A stretch of 64,000 nt of DNA. It comes from a virus. Every line of letters begins with the position of its first letter. Position 1 is the stretch's first letter. Where the stretch lies: positions 3,963 through 67,962 of IMG/VR virus record IMGVR_UViG_3300005844_000002; one strand, given 5' to 3'. Below, piece by piece: positions 1 through 61,660 of this stretch. The notes below the pieces were generated by a model. That model was not told where the DNA came from. It saw only the letters and a program-made list of their open reading frames with translations, and made no database searches. The translations under genes and the position numbers were made by a program.

Positions 1-625
1 CGTTTCGCTTCGCTGCTAAAGATTCTTGATCGCTGGTGGTATGACTGCTTTGCCAGCTCTCTTTAGCCTTTCCCCGATCAAAGAACTATCTCCTCGATCG
101 CGTCATTTACTGCTTAGCTTCCGGAATTGCACCGCCAGCCTAAGCACCGTTGGATGTCCGGACCGCTTGGAGTCGGGAAGCACTGAAGAGCGTATTCTAA
201 TTCGCCTTCCCTGCGACGGTCGCGGCTGTATCACGTCCTAGCCAAACCGCATTTCTTTGTTTTGGGGCTCGCTGCGATCAAGTACCTCTCGGCTCTTCTG
301 AGATCGCTTGTGCTCGTTACCGTCACCGCCTCTGTGTCGCGGTCTACGTTGCAGGGACTTCAAAAAACACGCTCATCAGTGCCGCCCTGCTGTTCACAGC
401 GCGGACACCGTAAACGAAGGCTCTGATTGGGTCCGTCACTGGCGATGCTTCTTTACTAAGTGCGCACCAAGTAAAGTATTGGATATGACGGCAATTTCCC
501 ACTATCGCCGGAAATCCCAGTCAGAGCCTTCGTTTGTCCTATCTCGTAGGCTTCCGGCCTAAGAGCAAGCTTTCTGTGGTTATCCTGGGTTCAGAGTCCC
601 AGGCTTCCGTAGCCGGTGTCCCTCA
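1..625 (-). ncRNA. Large structured ncRNA, GOLLD-like candidate, 3' end runs off the window
   Basis: No credible ORF. Nested stems (plus coordinates): 403-410/614-621, 412-431/516-535 (20 bp, one wobble/mismatch), 433-438/486-491, 451-457/470-476, 180-193/369-382, 209-214/351-356, 111-117/140-146. Stems 15-22/60-67 and 23-32/75-85 cross, forming a pseudoknot. Lies next to a tRNA-like element. Family identity and strand are inferred. Confidence 0.5.
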
Positions 626-629
626 CGTC

Positions 630-759
630 CTGAGTTGAGCAGGCAGGACTTGAACCTGCATGGACCTACTTACCGAACGCCAAGCCTTATGCGCACTATC
701 TCTTGGTTGTGGAGGTCCGCCGTTAATCGCGCGTATAATTCCGCCACTGCTCAACTCAG
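630..759 (-). ncRNA. tRNA-like RNA with a non-canonical anticodon/variable region
   Basis: Minus strand: 13-bp terminal stem (630-642/747-759), D-arm-like TGGCGGAATTATACGC and a perfect T-arm GCAGG-TTCAAGT-CCTGC. The middle has GGACCT/AGGTCC and CCAAG/CTTGG stems in place of an anticodon arm. No encoded CCA. Confidence 0.6.
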
Positions 760-773
760 AAAATGAAAGAACG

Positions 774-905
774 TCTTTACTCTCACAAAGGCTCTCACGA
801 CCAGACTAGGTTAGGCTGTAACGTGCCGACAAAGGTCTGTGCGTTACCACAAATTGTCTTCAGCATAGCTAGCGCTGGTCCTGGGAGCCTTTGTAAAAGT
901 AAAGA
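774..905 (-). ncRNA. Long rod-like hairpin RNA element
   Basis: TCTTTACT/AGTAAAGA, ACAAAGGCTC/GAGCCTTTGT, GACCAG/CTGGTC and GTAACG/CGTTAC pair in register. Two C-A mismatches become G-U on the minus strand (one G-U favours plus). Confidence 0.45.
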
Positions 906-1097
906 ACCGACCTAGTACTAGTAGATCGGTTCTCAGAACTATCACTCGGCTTATTTGAAATTGGGCCGAGAAATTGTGCTATTAATCAATCCGTCTAGTA
1001 CACGGCTGCAAGCGAAATCAAAAGAATCCTAATGAAACGATCAAGCGAAAACTGAAAAATATTTCGACTCTCCTATGAAAATAGCGTCTACTCCCTC

Positions 1098-1670: not shown

Positions 1671-1779
1671 TGGTGGCCATTGACGTTACGGCTATACGTC
1701 TCCCAGGAATATTAGGCGGGCGCCGTAGACCCCGCTCAATCCTGTCGCACCCAGTTTCCTGGTAGCTTATTGTCAGGCC
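1671..1779 (-). ncRNA. 109-nt structured RNA ending in ACCA
   Basis: GGCC-TGAC/GTCA-AT-GGCC + ACCA; inner GCTA/TAGC, CCAGGAA/TTCCTGG and GCGGG/CCCGC stems; flanked by the repeated spacer AAAGAACAAAA (1659-1669, 1780-1790). Confidence 0.45.
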
Positions 1780-3729: not shown

Positions 3730-3947
3730 GAGAATTGGTGTTGTTCGGCAGCGCGCTCTAGAGAGCTATTGATCCGTTGAATTGACTCTAAGTCTCCTCT
3801 TACAAAAAAGTGGTACTCAAACCAGTCTCGATTCATTTGGTACTCGAATTCATAGCCCATAAACCTAAGGCCGTCGAGGTACGTTTTGAACTTCTTGGCT
3901 AACAGCCAGCCAATGACGTAGTGCTGCGCGTAATTTTGTGAGGTCAT
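3726..3947 (-). CDS. Hypothetical protein
   Basis: ATGA overlaps at both ends. Confidence 0.6.
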   Translation of the reverse strand: MTSQNYAQHYVIGWLLAKKFKTYLDGLRFMGYEFEYQMNRDWFEYHFFVRGDLESIQRINSSLERAAEQHQFS

Positions 3948-4138
3948 GATTTTGGTTTAATCGCGTACCGTTCGAATAGGTATCTAACGACTCGGTCTTT
4001 TTCTATTGCGGTCAAGATCTCGGAGCTCCAGGTGTTTTCTATAGCAAGCACCGTCAAATAAATCGTAGCTAGTTCATTATCGCCAAGTCCGTCTGGTATG
4101 GCGAAAGTAATCTGAAGTGGTTTTCGTTCGTCGCTCAT
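3944..4138 (-). CDS. Hypothetical protein
   Basis: Coupled overlaps at both ends. Confidence 0.55.
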   Translation of the reverse strand: MSDERKPLQITFAIPDGLGDNELATIYLTVLAIENTWSSEILTAIEKDRVVRYLFERYAIKPKS

Positions 4139-4578
4139 AATGTAAACTCCCCACGAACAAAACTAGTTCTGATTGTTGCGCCGTTCACGCCAAGCAGGCG
4201 TCCTATGTTCTCATAACAACGTTTGATCGGTAGCTTGGTTTGTTTCTGAAGATCGTGAGCCCTACGTACTACCTCGCGCTTAAGCTCCAAAGGATACTTC
4301 GAATTGTTGGCCTTGCGCATGAGCACAACCTGACCTTGATTTTGCTTCTCAATCTTAGTTACAAAAAGGTGTTTGCGTAGCGACTCTAAACCTACACCCG
4401 TCTCTTCGGACGCAGCTTGGATTCCTATTTCCTTGGCCCTAACTGCGGCTAGGTTGAGAAGCTCCAGGGGATATTTCCTGCGCCGAATGTTAGCGGCGGC
4501 ACGCACATTGGTCTGTGCTAGCTGCCCGAGCTCTGAGTTTGCGGCAACCATGCGTATGCCTGATATGGGTTGGTTCAT
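4135..4578 (-). CDS. Tandem helix-turn-helix DNA-binding protein
   Basis: Two repeats KYPLEL...(AASEETGVGLESLRK / IGRLLGVNGATIR). Confidence 0.7.
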   Translation of the reverse strand: MNQPISGIRMVAANSELGQLAQTNVRAAANIRRRKYPLELLNLAAVRAKEIGIQAASEETGVGLESLRKHLFVTKIEKQNQGQVVLMRKANNSKYPLELKREVVRRAHDLQKQTKLPIKRCYENIGRLLGVNGATIRTSFVRGEFTL

Positions 4579-5024
4579 GATAGTCGTTTAAGGTATTTTG
4601 TGATTGCAGCCATTGCTTCCTCAAGTGAATAGGCTACGAAAACGAAGTAGCCCTGGCCGGAGACTAGATCTAGCCACTCACTTTGAGCATCCGAAACCAT
4701 TCCATTTGGAGCCTTCAATTCGATTGCCATCCCATGCCACTGCGAACGCGGCACAAAAAGTATGTAGTCCGAAACGCCCGCTACTTTTCCCATTCGCTTG
4801 AGCCTAGCTCCACGAATAAAGTCTTGCTTGCTTGTCTTAGATCCTTCGTTCGGCACATGCACCAGCAGCCGAGCGTCGGGCACACCGAATCCTTTGTGCG
4901 CAAAATTGAACCATTTTACCAGAGACTCAGCTATCTGTCCCTCCGGCTGTTTCCTTCGCTGTTGGCGTTTGAACTTAGCACGCCACGCCTTGAGCGCATC
5001 TTCTGGGAGAAACGCGGCATTCAT
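4575..5024 (-). CDS. VRR-NUC domain nuclease (resolvase-like)
   Basis: HVPNEG, GKVAGVSDY, IELKAPNG...SDAQSEW motifs. Confidence 0.85.
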   Translation of the reverse strand: MNAAFLPEDALKAWRAKFKRQQRRKQPEGQIAESLVKWFNFAHKGFGVPDARLLVHVPNEGSKTSKQDFIRGARLKRMGKVAGVSDYILFVPRSQWHGMAIELKAPNGMVSDAQSEWLDLVSGQGYFVFVAYSLEEAMAAITKYLKRLS

Positions 5025-5275
5025 GGTTTGTCCTCGATTAAGATGTCGCACGATATTGGCTGTTCCGGCATACCTAGTCGCATGTGATCACCGAATATTT
5101 GCATTACCTGCCAAAGTTGCATCTTACTAAATCCTTCGCTGTCTTTCTCCAGCTGCCCGGGGGTAATTCCATAGGTGGCGTAAAACTTTTCTCGAATCGA
5201 GTGGCCTAATGGCGTGATCTTAACCTTCACGTTACTGTTTAGGTTGAATGGTCTAAAAACAGATGTAGAGTTCAT
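5021..5275 (-). CDS. Conserved phage hypothetical protein
   Basis: FNLNSNVKVKIT...G, MQLWQVMQIFG motif. Confidence 0.75.
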   Translation of the reverse strand: MNSTSVFRPFNLNSNVKVKITPLGHSIREKFYATYGITPGQLEKDSEGFSKMQLWQVMQIFGDHMRLGMPEQPISCDILIEDKP

Positions 5276-48917: not shown

Positions 48918-51900
48918 TGCCTACTTATGAGGTAACAGGCCCCTCCGGTACGGTCATTGAAATGGAGGGAGCGAATCCGCCTAGCCAAGCGGATATTGAT
49001 GCCGCGTTTGCGAGTATCCAAAAAACGGCAGTGCCTGCTACCCAAGCGTCGTCTGGTGGCTCGGATCTCGCACGGATGGCGAGCGCGGCCTATAGCGCAC
49101 CAGCTCCCAACATCGGAGCGAATCTAAACCTTCGTGATGCGCGTGCGGCAGGAGGGCAGACCTTAAGCTTATCGCAGGCTAGCCCGATTGCTCGTGAACG
49201 TGCGTATGATGTTCTCGGCGGACTTACCGGCCAAGGAGGATCTGAAGCCGCGCAGTTCACCAAGGAATTCAGGGCAGCTCCAGTTGGTCAAGCATTTCAA
49301 GACCGAGATCTAGGCGCTATCGTTAAGACTGGCGACAATACCTTTAGGCGTGTTGGCACGGCTCCGCAGCGCGATCAAACGGCAGGGGATATTTCTACCC
49401 AACTTTTAAATCAGGTATCCAACGCAGATATCGGTGGCGCTTTTAGTACGCTTCAACCCGGATTTAACCGAGCTGGTAATCTGGCTGTCCGTAGCGGTGG
49501 ATTGGTTGCGTCAACGCTTGCTCCAGAGCTTAGACTCCCAGGGCTTATTCTTGGATCTACGGGTGAACTAGCGGGCCAAGCAATCGACGCTGAAAGCGCG
49601 GGGCAAGATCCACTCAATTGGCGTAACTACAGTTTACCAGGTATAGTTGGTGCTGGGCTAGTGAGTACAGTGGGATCTGGCGCTACCGCTCCTACGCTTA
49701 GGCAGGCAGCAGCGCAAGGCATCCTTGAGGGCGGCGCGCTTGAGGCTCCATATCAACTATCGAGTTTAACGGCTGGCCCAACGCAGGCTGAGATTGATCC
49801 TAATACGGGACTACCTATTGGCGCAGCTAAATACGAAGGAAACGCTACGGATCTACTGCCTACGCTAGCAATGGGCCTAGGCGCTCGTGGAGGTCACGCT
49901 ATTGCGAACGCTATTTCTGACCTAAGGAATCCTCGTTTGCCGCAAATTGAGTCTGCTCCAGCTAGCTACACGGACCAAGGAATAATCAATGCTCAGGCGG
50001 CGCGGCAAGCTGAAGGAAACGCGGCGCTCGCTGACGCATTTCAAGGGGAGCAACGAGCGCTACAGGGCATAGATACAGGCTATCAGAATGCCGTAGAGCT
50101 ACAGGCTCCAGTCCAAGCGCAGAACGTTTTGGATGCCGCCGAAGCACAAGGAGCAGTTAACGCACAAAGACAGGGTGCGATTCTGGATAACCCGGCTACG
50201 CCGCAAAGTGCTCAAGCACTTCGAGAGCAATTAGCACTTGAGCAGCAAGCGGCTGATCGTGCGGTGCAGCAGCAGAATATTTTGAGACAGGCGTCTGGCC
50301 TAGATTTACAGGAAGCAATGCGGGCTAATCAGATTCAGCCTAGCACGCTTACACCGATTGAAACCTCCCCTCAAGAACTGGCAGCTAGGCAGATTAGAGA
50401 ACTGGACGCTCAACGAGCTACCGCGCTTCCGTTAAACGCTGAGCTTTCATCTCAGGCCAATAGGATGAACGAGCAATACGGGCGGGCGCTTCCTATTGCT
50501 CTTCCGACAATTGCTGGCGTAGGTGTTGGTGGAGCTATTGGATCAACGCAAGGCGATACACCACAAGAGCGATTTCAAAATACGGTTCTTGGTGCTGTTG
50601 GCGGTGGTCTGCTTGGCGCGGGCGGAACGGCTGCTGCACGGCTAGCTCAGCCCGAGCTTAACGCGGGCGAACAGGTCTTGGCCAAGGCGGCTAAACCACC
50701 GAGTCTAGCCAACATTGTAGCTGAAACTGCTTCTCACGTTGAAGGAAGTCCTGCTAGTACGCAGGCCGCAGCTAATGCGCTCACTCAGACTCCAAAGCTG
50801 CCTACGATCGCTGAGGCTACCGCGCAGCAATCGGCATTGGTTCAAGGTCTTAAGGAGATGGGGTATAGCGATAACGACATTGTCGATATAAAACGTAACA
50901 ACACACCTGAAAAAATCAGTGAAACCATTAATCGTAACCCTAGTAACACTAGGGTCGCAATATTGGACGAAGAGGGGAATGTTGTTGGTCAAAGCGAAGA
51001 CCTATTCCAAAAAATTAAGGCATATAAAAGCGCGTATCCGTCCGAGATGACTGGAGAAGAATTTAATCGTCTACGCCAACAAGATCAAATTGGAGGAAAT
51101 CAAAATGCCATTCAAAAGCAAAGCGCAACAAGCAAAGTGTTACGTCCTGAAAGCACAGGGCAAAGCGGGAAATTGGAACTGCCTAGCGTGGAGCCACGAA
51201 ACGCCCAATCAGAAATCGTTGCCGGAACACAAGCCCTCGACCAAGCAATCCAAAACATCGAACAAGCACCGCCGCTAAAGCCGCTGCCCGAAGACACAGA
51301 GTTTCTATATGAACAGAAGTATGACACCAAGTCAGGGCCAAAGTCCGAGCGGTATTACCAGGTTGACCGAACTCCCGACAATCCAAGAGGAAGAACAGTT
51401 GATGAAGCAACCCTGCGCTCGGAAGGGTACGATACTTCTGGACTCCCAGGACCCGAAGAGAATTCAGCAAATTCTGGATCTTCTCAATTCTCGGGTGCTA
51501 TTGGAGCTGGCGGAACTCAAGGCGCAGTCACAGGAAAAGCGTTAGGCATACTTGCGGGCGGCGCTACCGGCGGCACGTTGGGATTCCTTGGGTCCAACGA
51601 AAAAGACGATAAGCTAGTTCACACTGTAGCTGGTGCGATCATTGGCGGAATCGGCGCTGCTGCTTTGATGAAAGGAGCAGACGCCATAACCAGGGCCAAG
51701 GTTGGGCAAGAGCTAGATGTTCTTCGCCGCAACATCATCAATGAGAATATCCCGCGTTTAAGGAACGCGTCGGAAGAATCTGCTAATGCTGTGTTTCGTT
51801 ACGCCAATGCGCCACAGGCTGCCGAGGACGTAGCGAAAGACATGCAGGCTAGAGTGCTTGGAAGTCAGTACAAAAGCCCGGAGTTTTCAAAGAAGCTCGG

Positions 51901-57814: not shown

Positions 57815-58100
57815 GCCCGAGTCGATTCAAGAACCATACGACTATCCCACAAGGTGGCTAGTGAAAAGCTCTAGCTCGGAACACACAATGTATCTCGTAG
57901 ATCTCGGCAGTTACAATAACGTAGGCGAGTGCCAATGTATTTACTGGAGAACTACAGTAGGACCTAAGGTTAAGAAAGGTCAAGTCGTTAGATGCCGCCA
58001 CATAAATATTGCTAGGGAACGTTTTACCAACTGGGCTATCAAAGAATTCCACGATAAAGATCCAGACAAAGGACATGACCGCGAACAACTCGAACGATGA
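57786..58100 (+). CDS. SWIM-type Zn-finger protein
   Basis: Y.VDL...CQC...CRHI. Confidence 0.7.
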   Translation: MHTQPVQSLKPESIQEPYDYPTRWLVKSSSSEHTMYLVDLGSYNNVGECQCIYWRTTVGPKVKKGQVVRCRHINIARERFTNWAIKEFHDKDPDKGHDREQLER

Positions 58101-58417
58101 AACGTTCCCCCCTTAAGAGAAGCACGAAGCCACTTAAGCGAACGCAGCTTAAGCGCGTGTCCAAGAAGATGGCCAAGGCGTATGAAACCTACCGACAGCG
58201 AAGGAAAGACTTCCTTGCCGAGCACCCGTTCTGCGAAGTGGAGATAGTTGTACCAGGAGTGCTTTCCTGTATGGGTGCCTCATGCGATGTTCATCATATC
58301 AATAAGCGCGGGCCATACCTAAACGACACATCTACCTGGCTAGCGGTATGTCGCGAGTGCCACACTTTTATTCACAACAACCCAAAGATAGCCAGAGAAC
58401 TAGGACTACTCAAATGA
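58097..58417 (+). CDS. Small HNH nuclease
   Basis: MKRSPLKR, C...DVHH...N...LAVCRECH. Confidence 0.8.
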   Translation: MKRSPLKRSTKPLKRTQLKRVSKKMAKAYETYRQRRKDFLAEHPFCEVEIVVPGVLSCMGASCDVHHINKRGPYLNDTSTWLAVCRECHTFIHNNPKIARELGLLK

Positions 58418-61128: not shown

Positions 61129-61660
61129 AATCAAAGAAATATGGCTACCCGTTATTGGGCATAAGGGGTACGAGGTTTCTAATATTGGAAGAGTCAGGTC
61201 AATAGACCGATGGGTTAATTATTCCGATGGAAGGGTAGGATTTTACAGGGGTAAGATTTTTAACACAAGAGTTGGTAAGCGTGGGTATTGCTATGTCAGA
61301 TTGAGAAGTAAAAAAACTAACTGCACAGTGCACAGATTAGTGGCACAATCATTTCTTGGCATATCTGACGAACAGCAGGTAGATCACGCAGATGGGAATA
61401 AAACGAATAATTTGCTTTCTAACCTAAGGCCGTGTTCTCGTAGTGAGAACGGAGCCAACTCTTGTATAAAAAATAATAATACCAGTGGATATAAAGGCGT
61501 TCATTTCTATAGGAGTAGAAAAAAATGGACCGCGCACATAGGCGTAAATGGAAGAACTGTTCATCTAGGTTACTTTTTATCCAAGGAAGAGGCTGCCCGC
61601 GCATATGACCAAGCGGCGATCAAATACTTTGGAGAATTCGCGAGGATTAACTGTGTTTAA
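61121..61660 (+). CDS. NUMOD4-HNH-AP2 homing endonuclease
   Basis: EIWLPVIG..GYEVSNIGRV, HRLVA, DHADGNKTNN, SGYKGV, LGYF...AARAYD. Confidence 0.9.
   Translation: MSEIKEIWLPVIGHKGYEVSNIGRVRSIDRWVNYSDGRVGFYRGKIFNTRVGKRGYCYVRLRSKKTNCTVHRLVAQSFLGISDEQQVDHADGNKTNNLLSNLRPCSRSENGANSCIKNNNTSGYKGVHFYRSRKKWTAHIGVNGRTVHLGYFLSKEEAARAYDQAAIKYFGEFARINCV

Follow-up and report, generated by a model that had tools for sequence, protein, structure and literature searches.

The first 625 positions of a 64,000-nucleotide stretch of phage DNA (hereafter the window, bases 3963–67962 of the 67,962-bp record IMGVR_UViG_3300005844_000002, which has a 100-bp repeat at both ends) do not form one integrated or GOLLD-like RNA; they are a chain of separately closed structural modules, namely a linker, D3, D4 and D5, and show mosaic inheritance among closely related phages. 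This stretch is non-coding, folds more stably than chance, and is best described as structured RNA cassettes, specific to this lineage and probably on the minus strand, within a hyperplastic island. We give about even odds (roughly 0.5) to the more specific reading that it is the strain-variable downstream part of a leftward non-coding precursor of ~1.2 kb made of autonomous stem-closed modules. An earlier sequence-only reading had described the same positions as one large pseudoknotted RNA, either a divergent GOLLD or a new class, at the head of an RNA-gene island. Its observation of a non-coding stretch dense in stems is partly confirmed, and its interpretation is supported in part, as to a structured non-coding RNA but not as to a single large one.

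A chain of separately folding modules

The stretch belongs to an island of 1,222 bases free of open reading frames (ORFs), genome positions 3838–5059, which reaches from 124 bases left of the window to window position 1097; the earlier statement that the element runs on past base 1 was thus correct. The longest ORFs within 1–625 encode 84 amino acids (aa; 308–562, plus strand) and 71 aa (26–241, plus strand), none of the four ORFs tested matches Pfam or PHROGs at E ≤ 0.1, and both of the longest are partly replaced or interrupted in related phages, in agreement with the earlier judgement that no credible ORF is present. The minimum free energy (MFE) of 1–625 is −225.2 kcal/mol on the plus strand (z-score −4.66) and −246.9 kcal/mol on the minus strand (z −6.84), values reached by 0 of 20 shuffles in either case, and the MFE folds contain 16 (plus) and 14 (minus) helices of at least six contiguous pairs. 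The stems of this stretch are therefore above chance, and the comparison with shuffles that the earlier reading had proposed, like its count of at least nine stems, came out in its favour.

The fold is nevertheless uneven, with separately closed modules whose support differs widely. The most strongly folded is D3 (410–537, minus strand; z −7.24, and −7.22 on the plus strand), in which a near-perfect 20-bp stem closes a three-way junction. This stem (411–431/516–536) has 21 bp in the plus-strand MFE fold and 15 + 4 bp in that of the minus strand, its inverted repeat (412–431/516–535) is 95% matched over 20 bp, and one of the D3 hairpins has the apex GUGCGCAC (TGCGCA at 461). D4 (150–409, minus strand; −111.8 kcal/mol, z −5.84) is a long rod with a branched top, and its basal helix (~153–192 with 370–409) is retained in relatives in which the interior (193–369) has been swapped. 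The linker (538–617, minus strand; z −2.74) contains three small hairpins; one of them, GGCU-ACGRA-AGCC (~603–615), which lies nearest to a neighbouring 23-bp helix, is the only linker hairpin common to all five relatives compared below. D5 (1–149, minus strand; z −2.26, and −1.14 on the plus strand) is weakly structured, with local hairpins at 111–146, 75–100 and 15–67, and contains one inverted TTTCGCTTSG box (3–12). No T-loop or tRNA frame could be read from the sequence of D3–D5.

D5 is also the site of the proposed pseudoknot, a crossing of 15–22/60–67 with 23–32/75–85. The complementarity is there, as eight perfect pairs in the first helix and ten pairs with one bulge in the second, but it is no better than chance. 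When the stretch is shuffled by mononucleotide, perfectly complementary 8-mers still arise 2.27 times on average. In the minus-strand MFE fold, an 11-bp local hairpin (75–100) takes up bases of the second helix. Two natural substitutions affect the helices, one at position 17 keeping its pair (as U-G, on the minus strand only) and one at position 29 breaking it. The pseudoknot is therefore not accepted.

Mosaic inheritance among related phages

The modules can be compared with five related contigs and with three metagenome runs (X4–X6) that carry island alleles; a fourth run, X3, yielded no contig for the island. L004–L006 are metagenome contigs found with a 22-base pattern, and L008–L010 are viral contigs found through a tail-fibre-like protein, the records of the three viral relatives being 15–53% complete. 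No useful homologue came from blastn against a phage collection, from the 68-aa and 150-aa flank proteins or from a first DNA pattern in viral contigs, and an alignment search with a 73-aa protein returned no contig beyond those already known. Three further candidates were set aside, L002 and L003 as not syntenic with the locus and L011 as a chance match inside a 1,259-aa ORF.

Positions 434–642 are identical in L004 up to the point where that contig stops. In L005, 411–602 is replaced by 347 other bases that include a 60-aa ORF in the minus sense, and 193–369 by 83 other bases; runs X4 and X5 contain both an 83-base and a 151-base allele of this interior, and in run X6 ~472 other bases take the place of ~193–602. 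Everything left of ~600 is different in L006 and L010, and D3 is absent from L005, L006 and L010. Among the incomplete records of the three viral relatives, 1–599 has no match in any (0/3) and 600–625 matches in one (L010). At the other end, D5 travels with the 68-aa and 111-aa ORFs on its left, the segment from −124 to 192 being 97.5–98.9% identical in L005. From these borders and shared identities it follows that 1–625 comprises at least two independently inherited cassettes. One is the linker with D3 and the other D4 with D5 and its ORFs, and the D4 interior, which has at least three alleles, is exchangeable in addition. A single element of more than 600 nucleotides, as proposed earlier, does not fit modules whose z-scores range from −7.24 to −2.26, which are inherited independently and are replaced by unrelated sequence, once by an ORF.

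To the right of the stretch, the same set again shows a mosaic. The 23-bp helix and the small hairpin next to it occur in the window phage and all five relatives, as does a 5' unit (~895–1050) that is 76–86% identical among them. Hairpin H2 (774–912) is found in L004 and L005 and is missing from L006 and L010, with GTTCTTT repeats at the junctions. The cargo inside the 23-bp helix is a tRNA-Leu-like RNA in the window phage and L006, a diverged copy of it in L005, and an unrelated 153-base fold in L004 and L010.

In L005 and L010, the cargo gives way to small ORFs of 60 and 81 aa, respectively, which have the same sense as the minus-strand reading. The 81-aa ORF of L010 (2211–2456, plus) and an 80-aa ORF at the cargo position of L006 (3403–3645, minus) look related by eye; neither has a meaningful family match, a single PHROG match at E 0.07 being the only one. 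A decayed gene was sought by tblastn with seven cargo ORFs of the relatives, and no remnant of one turned up in the island, where the best match covers 13 residues at E 0.16. In or beside the island locus there is an ORF with HNH and AP2 domains in L010 (1118–1678) and an HNH ORF in L009 (234–608), and two HNH-AP2 homologues lie elsewhere in the window genome (7481–8014, minus; 61151–61651, plus); HNH homing endonuclease genes are probably a driver of the mosaicism. The HNH-AP2 gene of L010 adjoins an int-alpA match (1696–1763, minus strand relative to the locus) that scores 43.2 bits, above its gathering score of 35.8, at E 1e-5, which is absent from the window and is the only match of the five relatives' loci to Rfam at E ≤ 5.

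Strand, conserved core and competing explanations

The minus strand is probably the one to be read in 1–625, because of the asymmetry of the D4 fold and the compatibility of natural substitutions with G-U pairing. D4 on the plus strand reaches only −96.8 kcal/mol (z −2.70), and D5 and the neighbouring 23-bp socket are likewise stabler on the minus strand. Variants at positions 17 (U-A to U-G), 419 (G-C to G-U, in run X4), 95, 91 and 90 change pairs to or from G-U on the minus strand only, and read on the plus strand they would be A-C mismatches. In the hairpin at 75–100, three changes (95, 91 and 90) keep the pairing and one (93) breaks it. The earlier candidate for a structured RNA thus stands as a non-coding sequence with structure above chance, probably in the orientation opposite to the one in which it had been given.

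The evidence is stronger for the conserved core just to the right, which is an RNA read from the minus strand, as covariation in its 5' unit, its tRNA-like RNA and the 153-base cargo shows. The 5' unit (895–1050, minus strand) contains two TTTCGCTTG boxes and two covarying hairpins, one at ~940–975 and a second, of 13 bp, that makes a terminator-like site (934–902, minus strand) together with the U-rich run behind it. Aligned over five sequences (A3), the unit has 95.1% of its cells paired, and the covariation score of 0.236 compares with 0.162 in shuffles (reached by 0 of 500) and with at most 0.084 when the partners are slid; in helix 6, four of six pairs have changed on both sides. This unit may be a separate RNA of ~170 nucleotides, antisense to the promoter region of a 112-aa gene on the right.

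Between the 5' unit and the linker lies the socket (618–770, minus strand), a 23-bp closing helix around an anticodon-less tRNA-Leu-like RNA with a T arm, a 7-bp acceptor with a 6-bp extension, and an expanded variable arm with a UGCGCA loop (690). Between the window and L005 copies, two acceptor pairs and one T-stem pair have changed on both sides, and every pair of the socket, acceptor and T stem is intact. Against the Rfam tRNA model the L005 copy reaches 38.7 bits, with 13 bases in the anticodon loop where the model expects five; a perfect palindrome of 12 bases makes up its anticodon arm, an oversized, self-pairing region. The window copy does not match the Rfam tRNA model at E ≤ 10, ARAGORN does not call it even with the threshold lowered to 80%, and 618–770 falls outside the tRNA family (RF00005), which calls for more than 29 bits and a 7-nt anticodon loop. 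The socket lies at 2279–2376 in L005, 8668–8845 in L004 and 1990–2165 in L010, and phages with alternative socket cargos are otherwise 80–99% identical. For the 153-nucleotide cargo of L004 and L010, none of 67 predicted pairs is broken, one has changed on both sides, and eight have changed on one side between G-U and Watson-Crick pairing. Like this core, D3–D5 are likely to be minus-strand RNA.

Several observations weigh against extending an RNA reading from the core to 1–625. For both D3 and H2, the two strands fold with equal strength and the arms are close to perfect, features also expected of DNA palindromes or mobile hairpins. Variation inside the stretch is tiny, L004 being identical and L005 97.5% identical, so that covariation of D3–D5 cannot be assessed, and what supports these modules amounts to about six substitutions, one of them disruptive. 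In relatives, the cargo found in place of the stretch has little or no structure (z −2.50 in L006, −2.94 in L005 and −0.47 in L010); high structure is therefore not required at the locus. Among the 15 sequencing runs found with this DNA, which come from rhizosphere and soil metagenomes, none is an RNA run, so that evidence on expression points neither way. The terminator-like hairpin at 934–902 lies upstream and could stop transcription before 1–625. Finally, the phage has no detected RNA-processing or RNA-binding gene among those sought, with 0 matches each for TROVE, RtcB, a CCA-adding enzyme and a reverse transcriptase in the one record searched. With TROVE, reverse transcriptase and tyrosine integrase all at 0 matches in the record, readings of the stretch as a Y RNA with Ro, as a retron or diversity-generating retroelement, or as the phage attachment site attP were rejected as well.

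One competing account is selfish or neutral palindromic DNA, in which D3, H2 and perhaps D4 are hairpin-bounded insertions, slippage-prone or resembling miniature inverted-repeat transposable elements (MITEs), in a tolerant intergenic hotspot, with good folding a by-product of the inverted repeats and no RNA function. This explanation, which we rank as the main rival and regard as unlikely while taking it seriously, draws on the long arms of D3 (20 bp at 95%) and H2 (31 bp at 87%), on their equal z-scores on both strands (for H2, a near-perfect hairpin of 139 nucleotides, −7.04 on the minus strand and −7.58 on the plus), on the presence or absence of H2 among relatives, and on the restriction of the modules to the closest strains, with ORFs or unstructured sequence in the same place elsewhere. 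Terminal inverted repeats of the MITE kind are indeed present in D3 and H2, but dispersed copies are lacking in the 67,962-bp genome, the lineage being otherwise known from fragments; H2 has no other copy there, nor has any other module. H2 has GTTCTTT on both sides and empty sites in L006 and L010, as a target-site duplication would, and a deletion by slippage fits equally; on these repeats H2 may be either an insertion or, where it is absent, a slippage deletion, and no such duplication is seen for D3. In addition, D4, D5 and the socket are clearly stabler on one strand, where substitutions are mostly compatible with G-U pairing, and the exchanged segments lie inside conserved helices and exclude them, the reverse of a mobile element with terminal repeats.

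The next alternative, a control region acting at the DNA level, such as a replication origin or an operator or promoter with its repeats and hairpins, we hold to be improbable. Its attraction is the position of the island, near the extreme of the cumulative GC skew and between divergent transcription units, with a leftward 68-aa ORF on the left, the first of an operon that also contains small ORFs and a tail-fibre-like protein of >1,000 aa, and the single rightward 112-aa gene on the right; of ten flanking proteins tested, eight match no family in Pfam or PHROGs. Moreover, a TTTCGCTTSR box occurs in three copies, two direct (~1010–1018 and ~1040–1050) and one inverted (3–12), and could be a protein-binding site. 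On the other hand, GC content (0.51) equals the genome value and there is no AT-rich tract, scans of 2,001 bases gave promoters and terminators at shuffle level (one site against 1.4 expected, and two against 2.2), and 1–599 is dispensable in relatives. The G-U-dependent covariation of the neighbouring core also speaks for selection at the RNA level.

Still less probable is one large ornate RNA, a divergent GOLLD or ROOL or a similar new class, perhaps assembling through self-complementary loops. Size, phage origin, strong folding and a tRNA-like neighbour are in keeping with it. TGCGCA tops hairpins both in D3 (461) and in the tRNA-like RNA (690), where ~0.3 copies would be expected in 1.2 kb, and UUGCAA is found at hairpin tips in relatives, once on a covarying stem. 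Yet a palindromic tip may be the mere end of a perfect inverted repeat, and TGCGCA is ordinary genome-wide (18 seen against 23.9 expected). As an aside, the genome as a whole strongly avoids several GC-rich 6-base palindromes (CCGCGG, 1 seen against 31.1 expected; CGCGCG, 2 against 23.3; GGCGCC, 3 against 18.3; CTCGAG and GACGTC, 0 each), which suggests pressure from host restriction systems. Inheritance of the stretch is piece by piece, and relatives lack the pieces. The MFE fold of the whole island pairs ~1005–1050 with 1–40 and so joins the TTTCGCTTSR boxes, but this closing helix was rejected as a conserved feature, its middle being lost in L005 and its 3' arm absent in L006 and L010, where the other arm has no partner.

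Covariance-model searches are equally unfavourable to a single known RNA. Across the 64 kb, Rfam at gathering scores gave 0 matches, GOLLD, ROOL, tmRNA (transfer-messenger RNA), RNase P and introns included, and at E ≤ 10, with the 124 bases left of the window taken in, the five weak matches in 3,000 bases and the seven in 1,401 bases comprised none of these families. L004–L006 likewise have no GOLLD, ROOL, RNase P or intron match at gathering scores. The divergent GOLLD or ROOL of the sequence-only reading is thus not recovered; its "new class" is conceivable, but the data show cassettes specific to one lineage and not a conserved family. Nor did the "RNA-gene island" hold up, since ARAGORN at its default found no tRNA or tmRNA in the window or the whole genome and no Rfam family reached its gathering score. 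At a threshold lowered to 90%, ARAGORN also calls a 96-nt tRNA-Pro(UGG) at 50582–50677 (plus) and a tRNA-Leu(AAG) at 58076–58149 (minus), both of which vanish at the default and have no Rfam match.

Two further named RNAs were considered, and we consider either of them highly improbable. At the 90% threshold, ARAGORN reports a permuted tmRNA at 106–724 (minus strand) with the tag ATVAGKAN. This call was rejected, since none is made at the default and the tmRNA families of Rfam are absent at E ≤ 10; its T arm, moreover, is that of the tRNA-like RNA, which is complete without the call, and the tag lacks the usual hydrophobic C-terminal end of tmRNA tags. The other is a solitary CRISPR-repeat mimic, that is, an RNA anti-CRISPR, prompted by a match to Rfam CRISPR-DR20 at 320–355 (plus strand; 24.5 bits, E 0.047). 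The score lies below the gathering score of 42, and when 185,579 species genomes were scanned for the positions in common, 33 stretches came up, with tandem arrays in Saccharopolyspora only (seven stretches in three species). The six CRISPR matches compared agree with the window at 21–28 of 45 positions, and 19 of these were required by the search pattern itself; this mimic, too, was rejected, its likeness being mostly pattern-imposed.

A proposed leftward precursor and its relation to known systems

The reading that we prefer is thus a leftward precursor of stem-closed modules, and its working may be sketched as follows. Minus-strand transcription would proceed leftward and in the direction of the operon that starts with the 68-aa ORF, first through a conserved core in which the 5' hairpin unit is followed by the 23-bp helix framing exchangeable cargo, either the tRNA-Leu-like RNA or the 153-nt fold. 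D4 would echo the design of the socket, with a fixed basal helix and a variable interior, and the socket, the base of D4 and the D3 stem, all 20 bp or longer, could serve as frames for exchangeable cargos. Host enzymes might cut such a precursor in two kinds of place, RNase III-type enzymes at these long helices and RNase P and RNase Z at the tRNA-like frame, and the products could be stable small structured RNAs, a protected 5' end of the downstream mRNA, or both. Turnover of cassettes would proceed by recombination between co-infecting relatives, probably helped by the HNH homing endonuclease genes at the locus.

If the modules are functional RNAs, they would display a rarely seen exchange of whole structured-RNA domains inside conserved helices, among phages otherwise 90–99% identical and beside one of the poorly understood anticodon-less tRNA-like RNAs of phages, and the lineage would be a natural experiment on the role of such RNAs, with frame set against cargo. 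The most valuable part is this direct view of cargo exchange in conserved RNA helices, and it lies mostly just outside 1–625. If, instead, the modules are only palindromic insertions, the island would be an ordinary hyperplastic intergenic region, with the cautionary lesson that strong folding scores by themselves do not identify a GOLLD-like RNA. A bolder variant, which we find doubtful, would make the island a kind of rack for RNA cassettes, in which the socket and the D4 base are fixed frames that help to process and present RNA, unrelated structured cargos, the set in 1–625 included, are swapped between co-infecting phages, and self-complementary tips (UGCGCA here, UUGCAA in relatives) pair the released RNAs into larger assemblies. 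Were it true, the rack would be a modular functional counterpart of the ROOL and GOLLD cages or a decoy for host RNA-targeting defences, and the fast turnover of alleles would record an arms race.

Among known systems, 1–625 resembles GOLLD (RF01998) and ROOL (RF03087) in context and size, being phage-borne, several hundred nucleotides long, densely structured and beside a tRNA-type gene, and it differs from them in covariance-model match and in conservation as one unit. According to an excerpt of the published account, these phage-borne RNAs, often near tRNA islands, form cages held together by kissing loops (PMC12286853), and the self-complementary hairpin tips described here, known from sequence alone, could in principle act alike. 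The covariance model of GOLLD has 0 matches at its gathering score in the 64 kb, and that of ROOL likewise finds no match. Whereas the 3' region of GOLLD is described in that excerpt as universally conserved (PMC12286853), nothing in 1–599 is conserved beyond the nearest strains. GOLLD is conserved as one unit, while here modules are swapped or missing in L005, L006, L010 and runs X4–X6, and a supported pseudoknot is absent from 1–625. The setting is that of a phage, but with 0 canonical tRNAs in the genome and one adjoining non-decoding tRNA-like RNA.

T4 RNAC and RNAD, listed in an excerpt of PMC3014915 as phage small stable RNAs still without an assigned role, belong to a phage tRNA region and resemble the neighbour at 618–770, not 1–625, in general design. 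The design of that neighbour is a Leu-type frame with an absent anticodon loop and an exchangeable interior.

The processing stems of rRNA precursors and phage early transcripts are RNase III sites. The helices of at least 20 bp that flank structured RNA here (the 23-bp socket, the D3 stem and the D4 base) are similar to such stems, as judged from their predicted pairing, but are lineage-specific. With the miniature inverted-repeat insertions of phage intergenic regions, finally, the island shares near-perfect arms, presence or absence by strain, and the direct repeats beside H2. It departs from them in that each module is single-copy in the genome and that in D4 and the socket the helix is conserved and the interior is variable.

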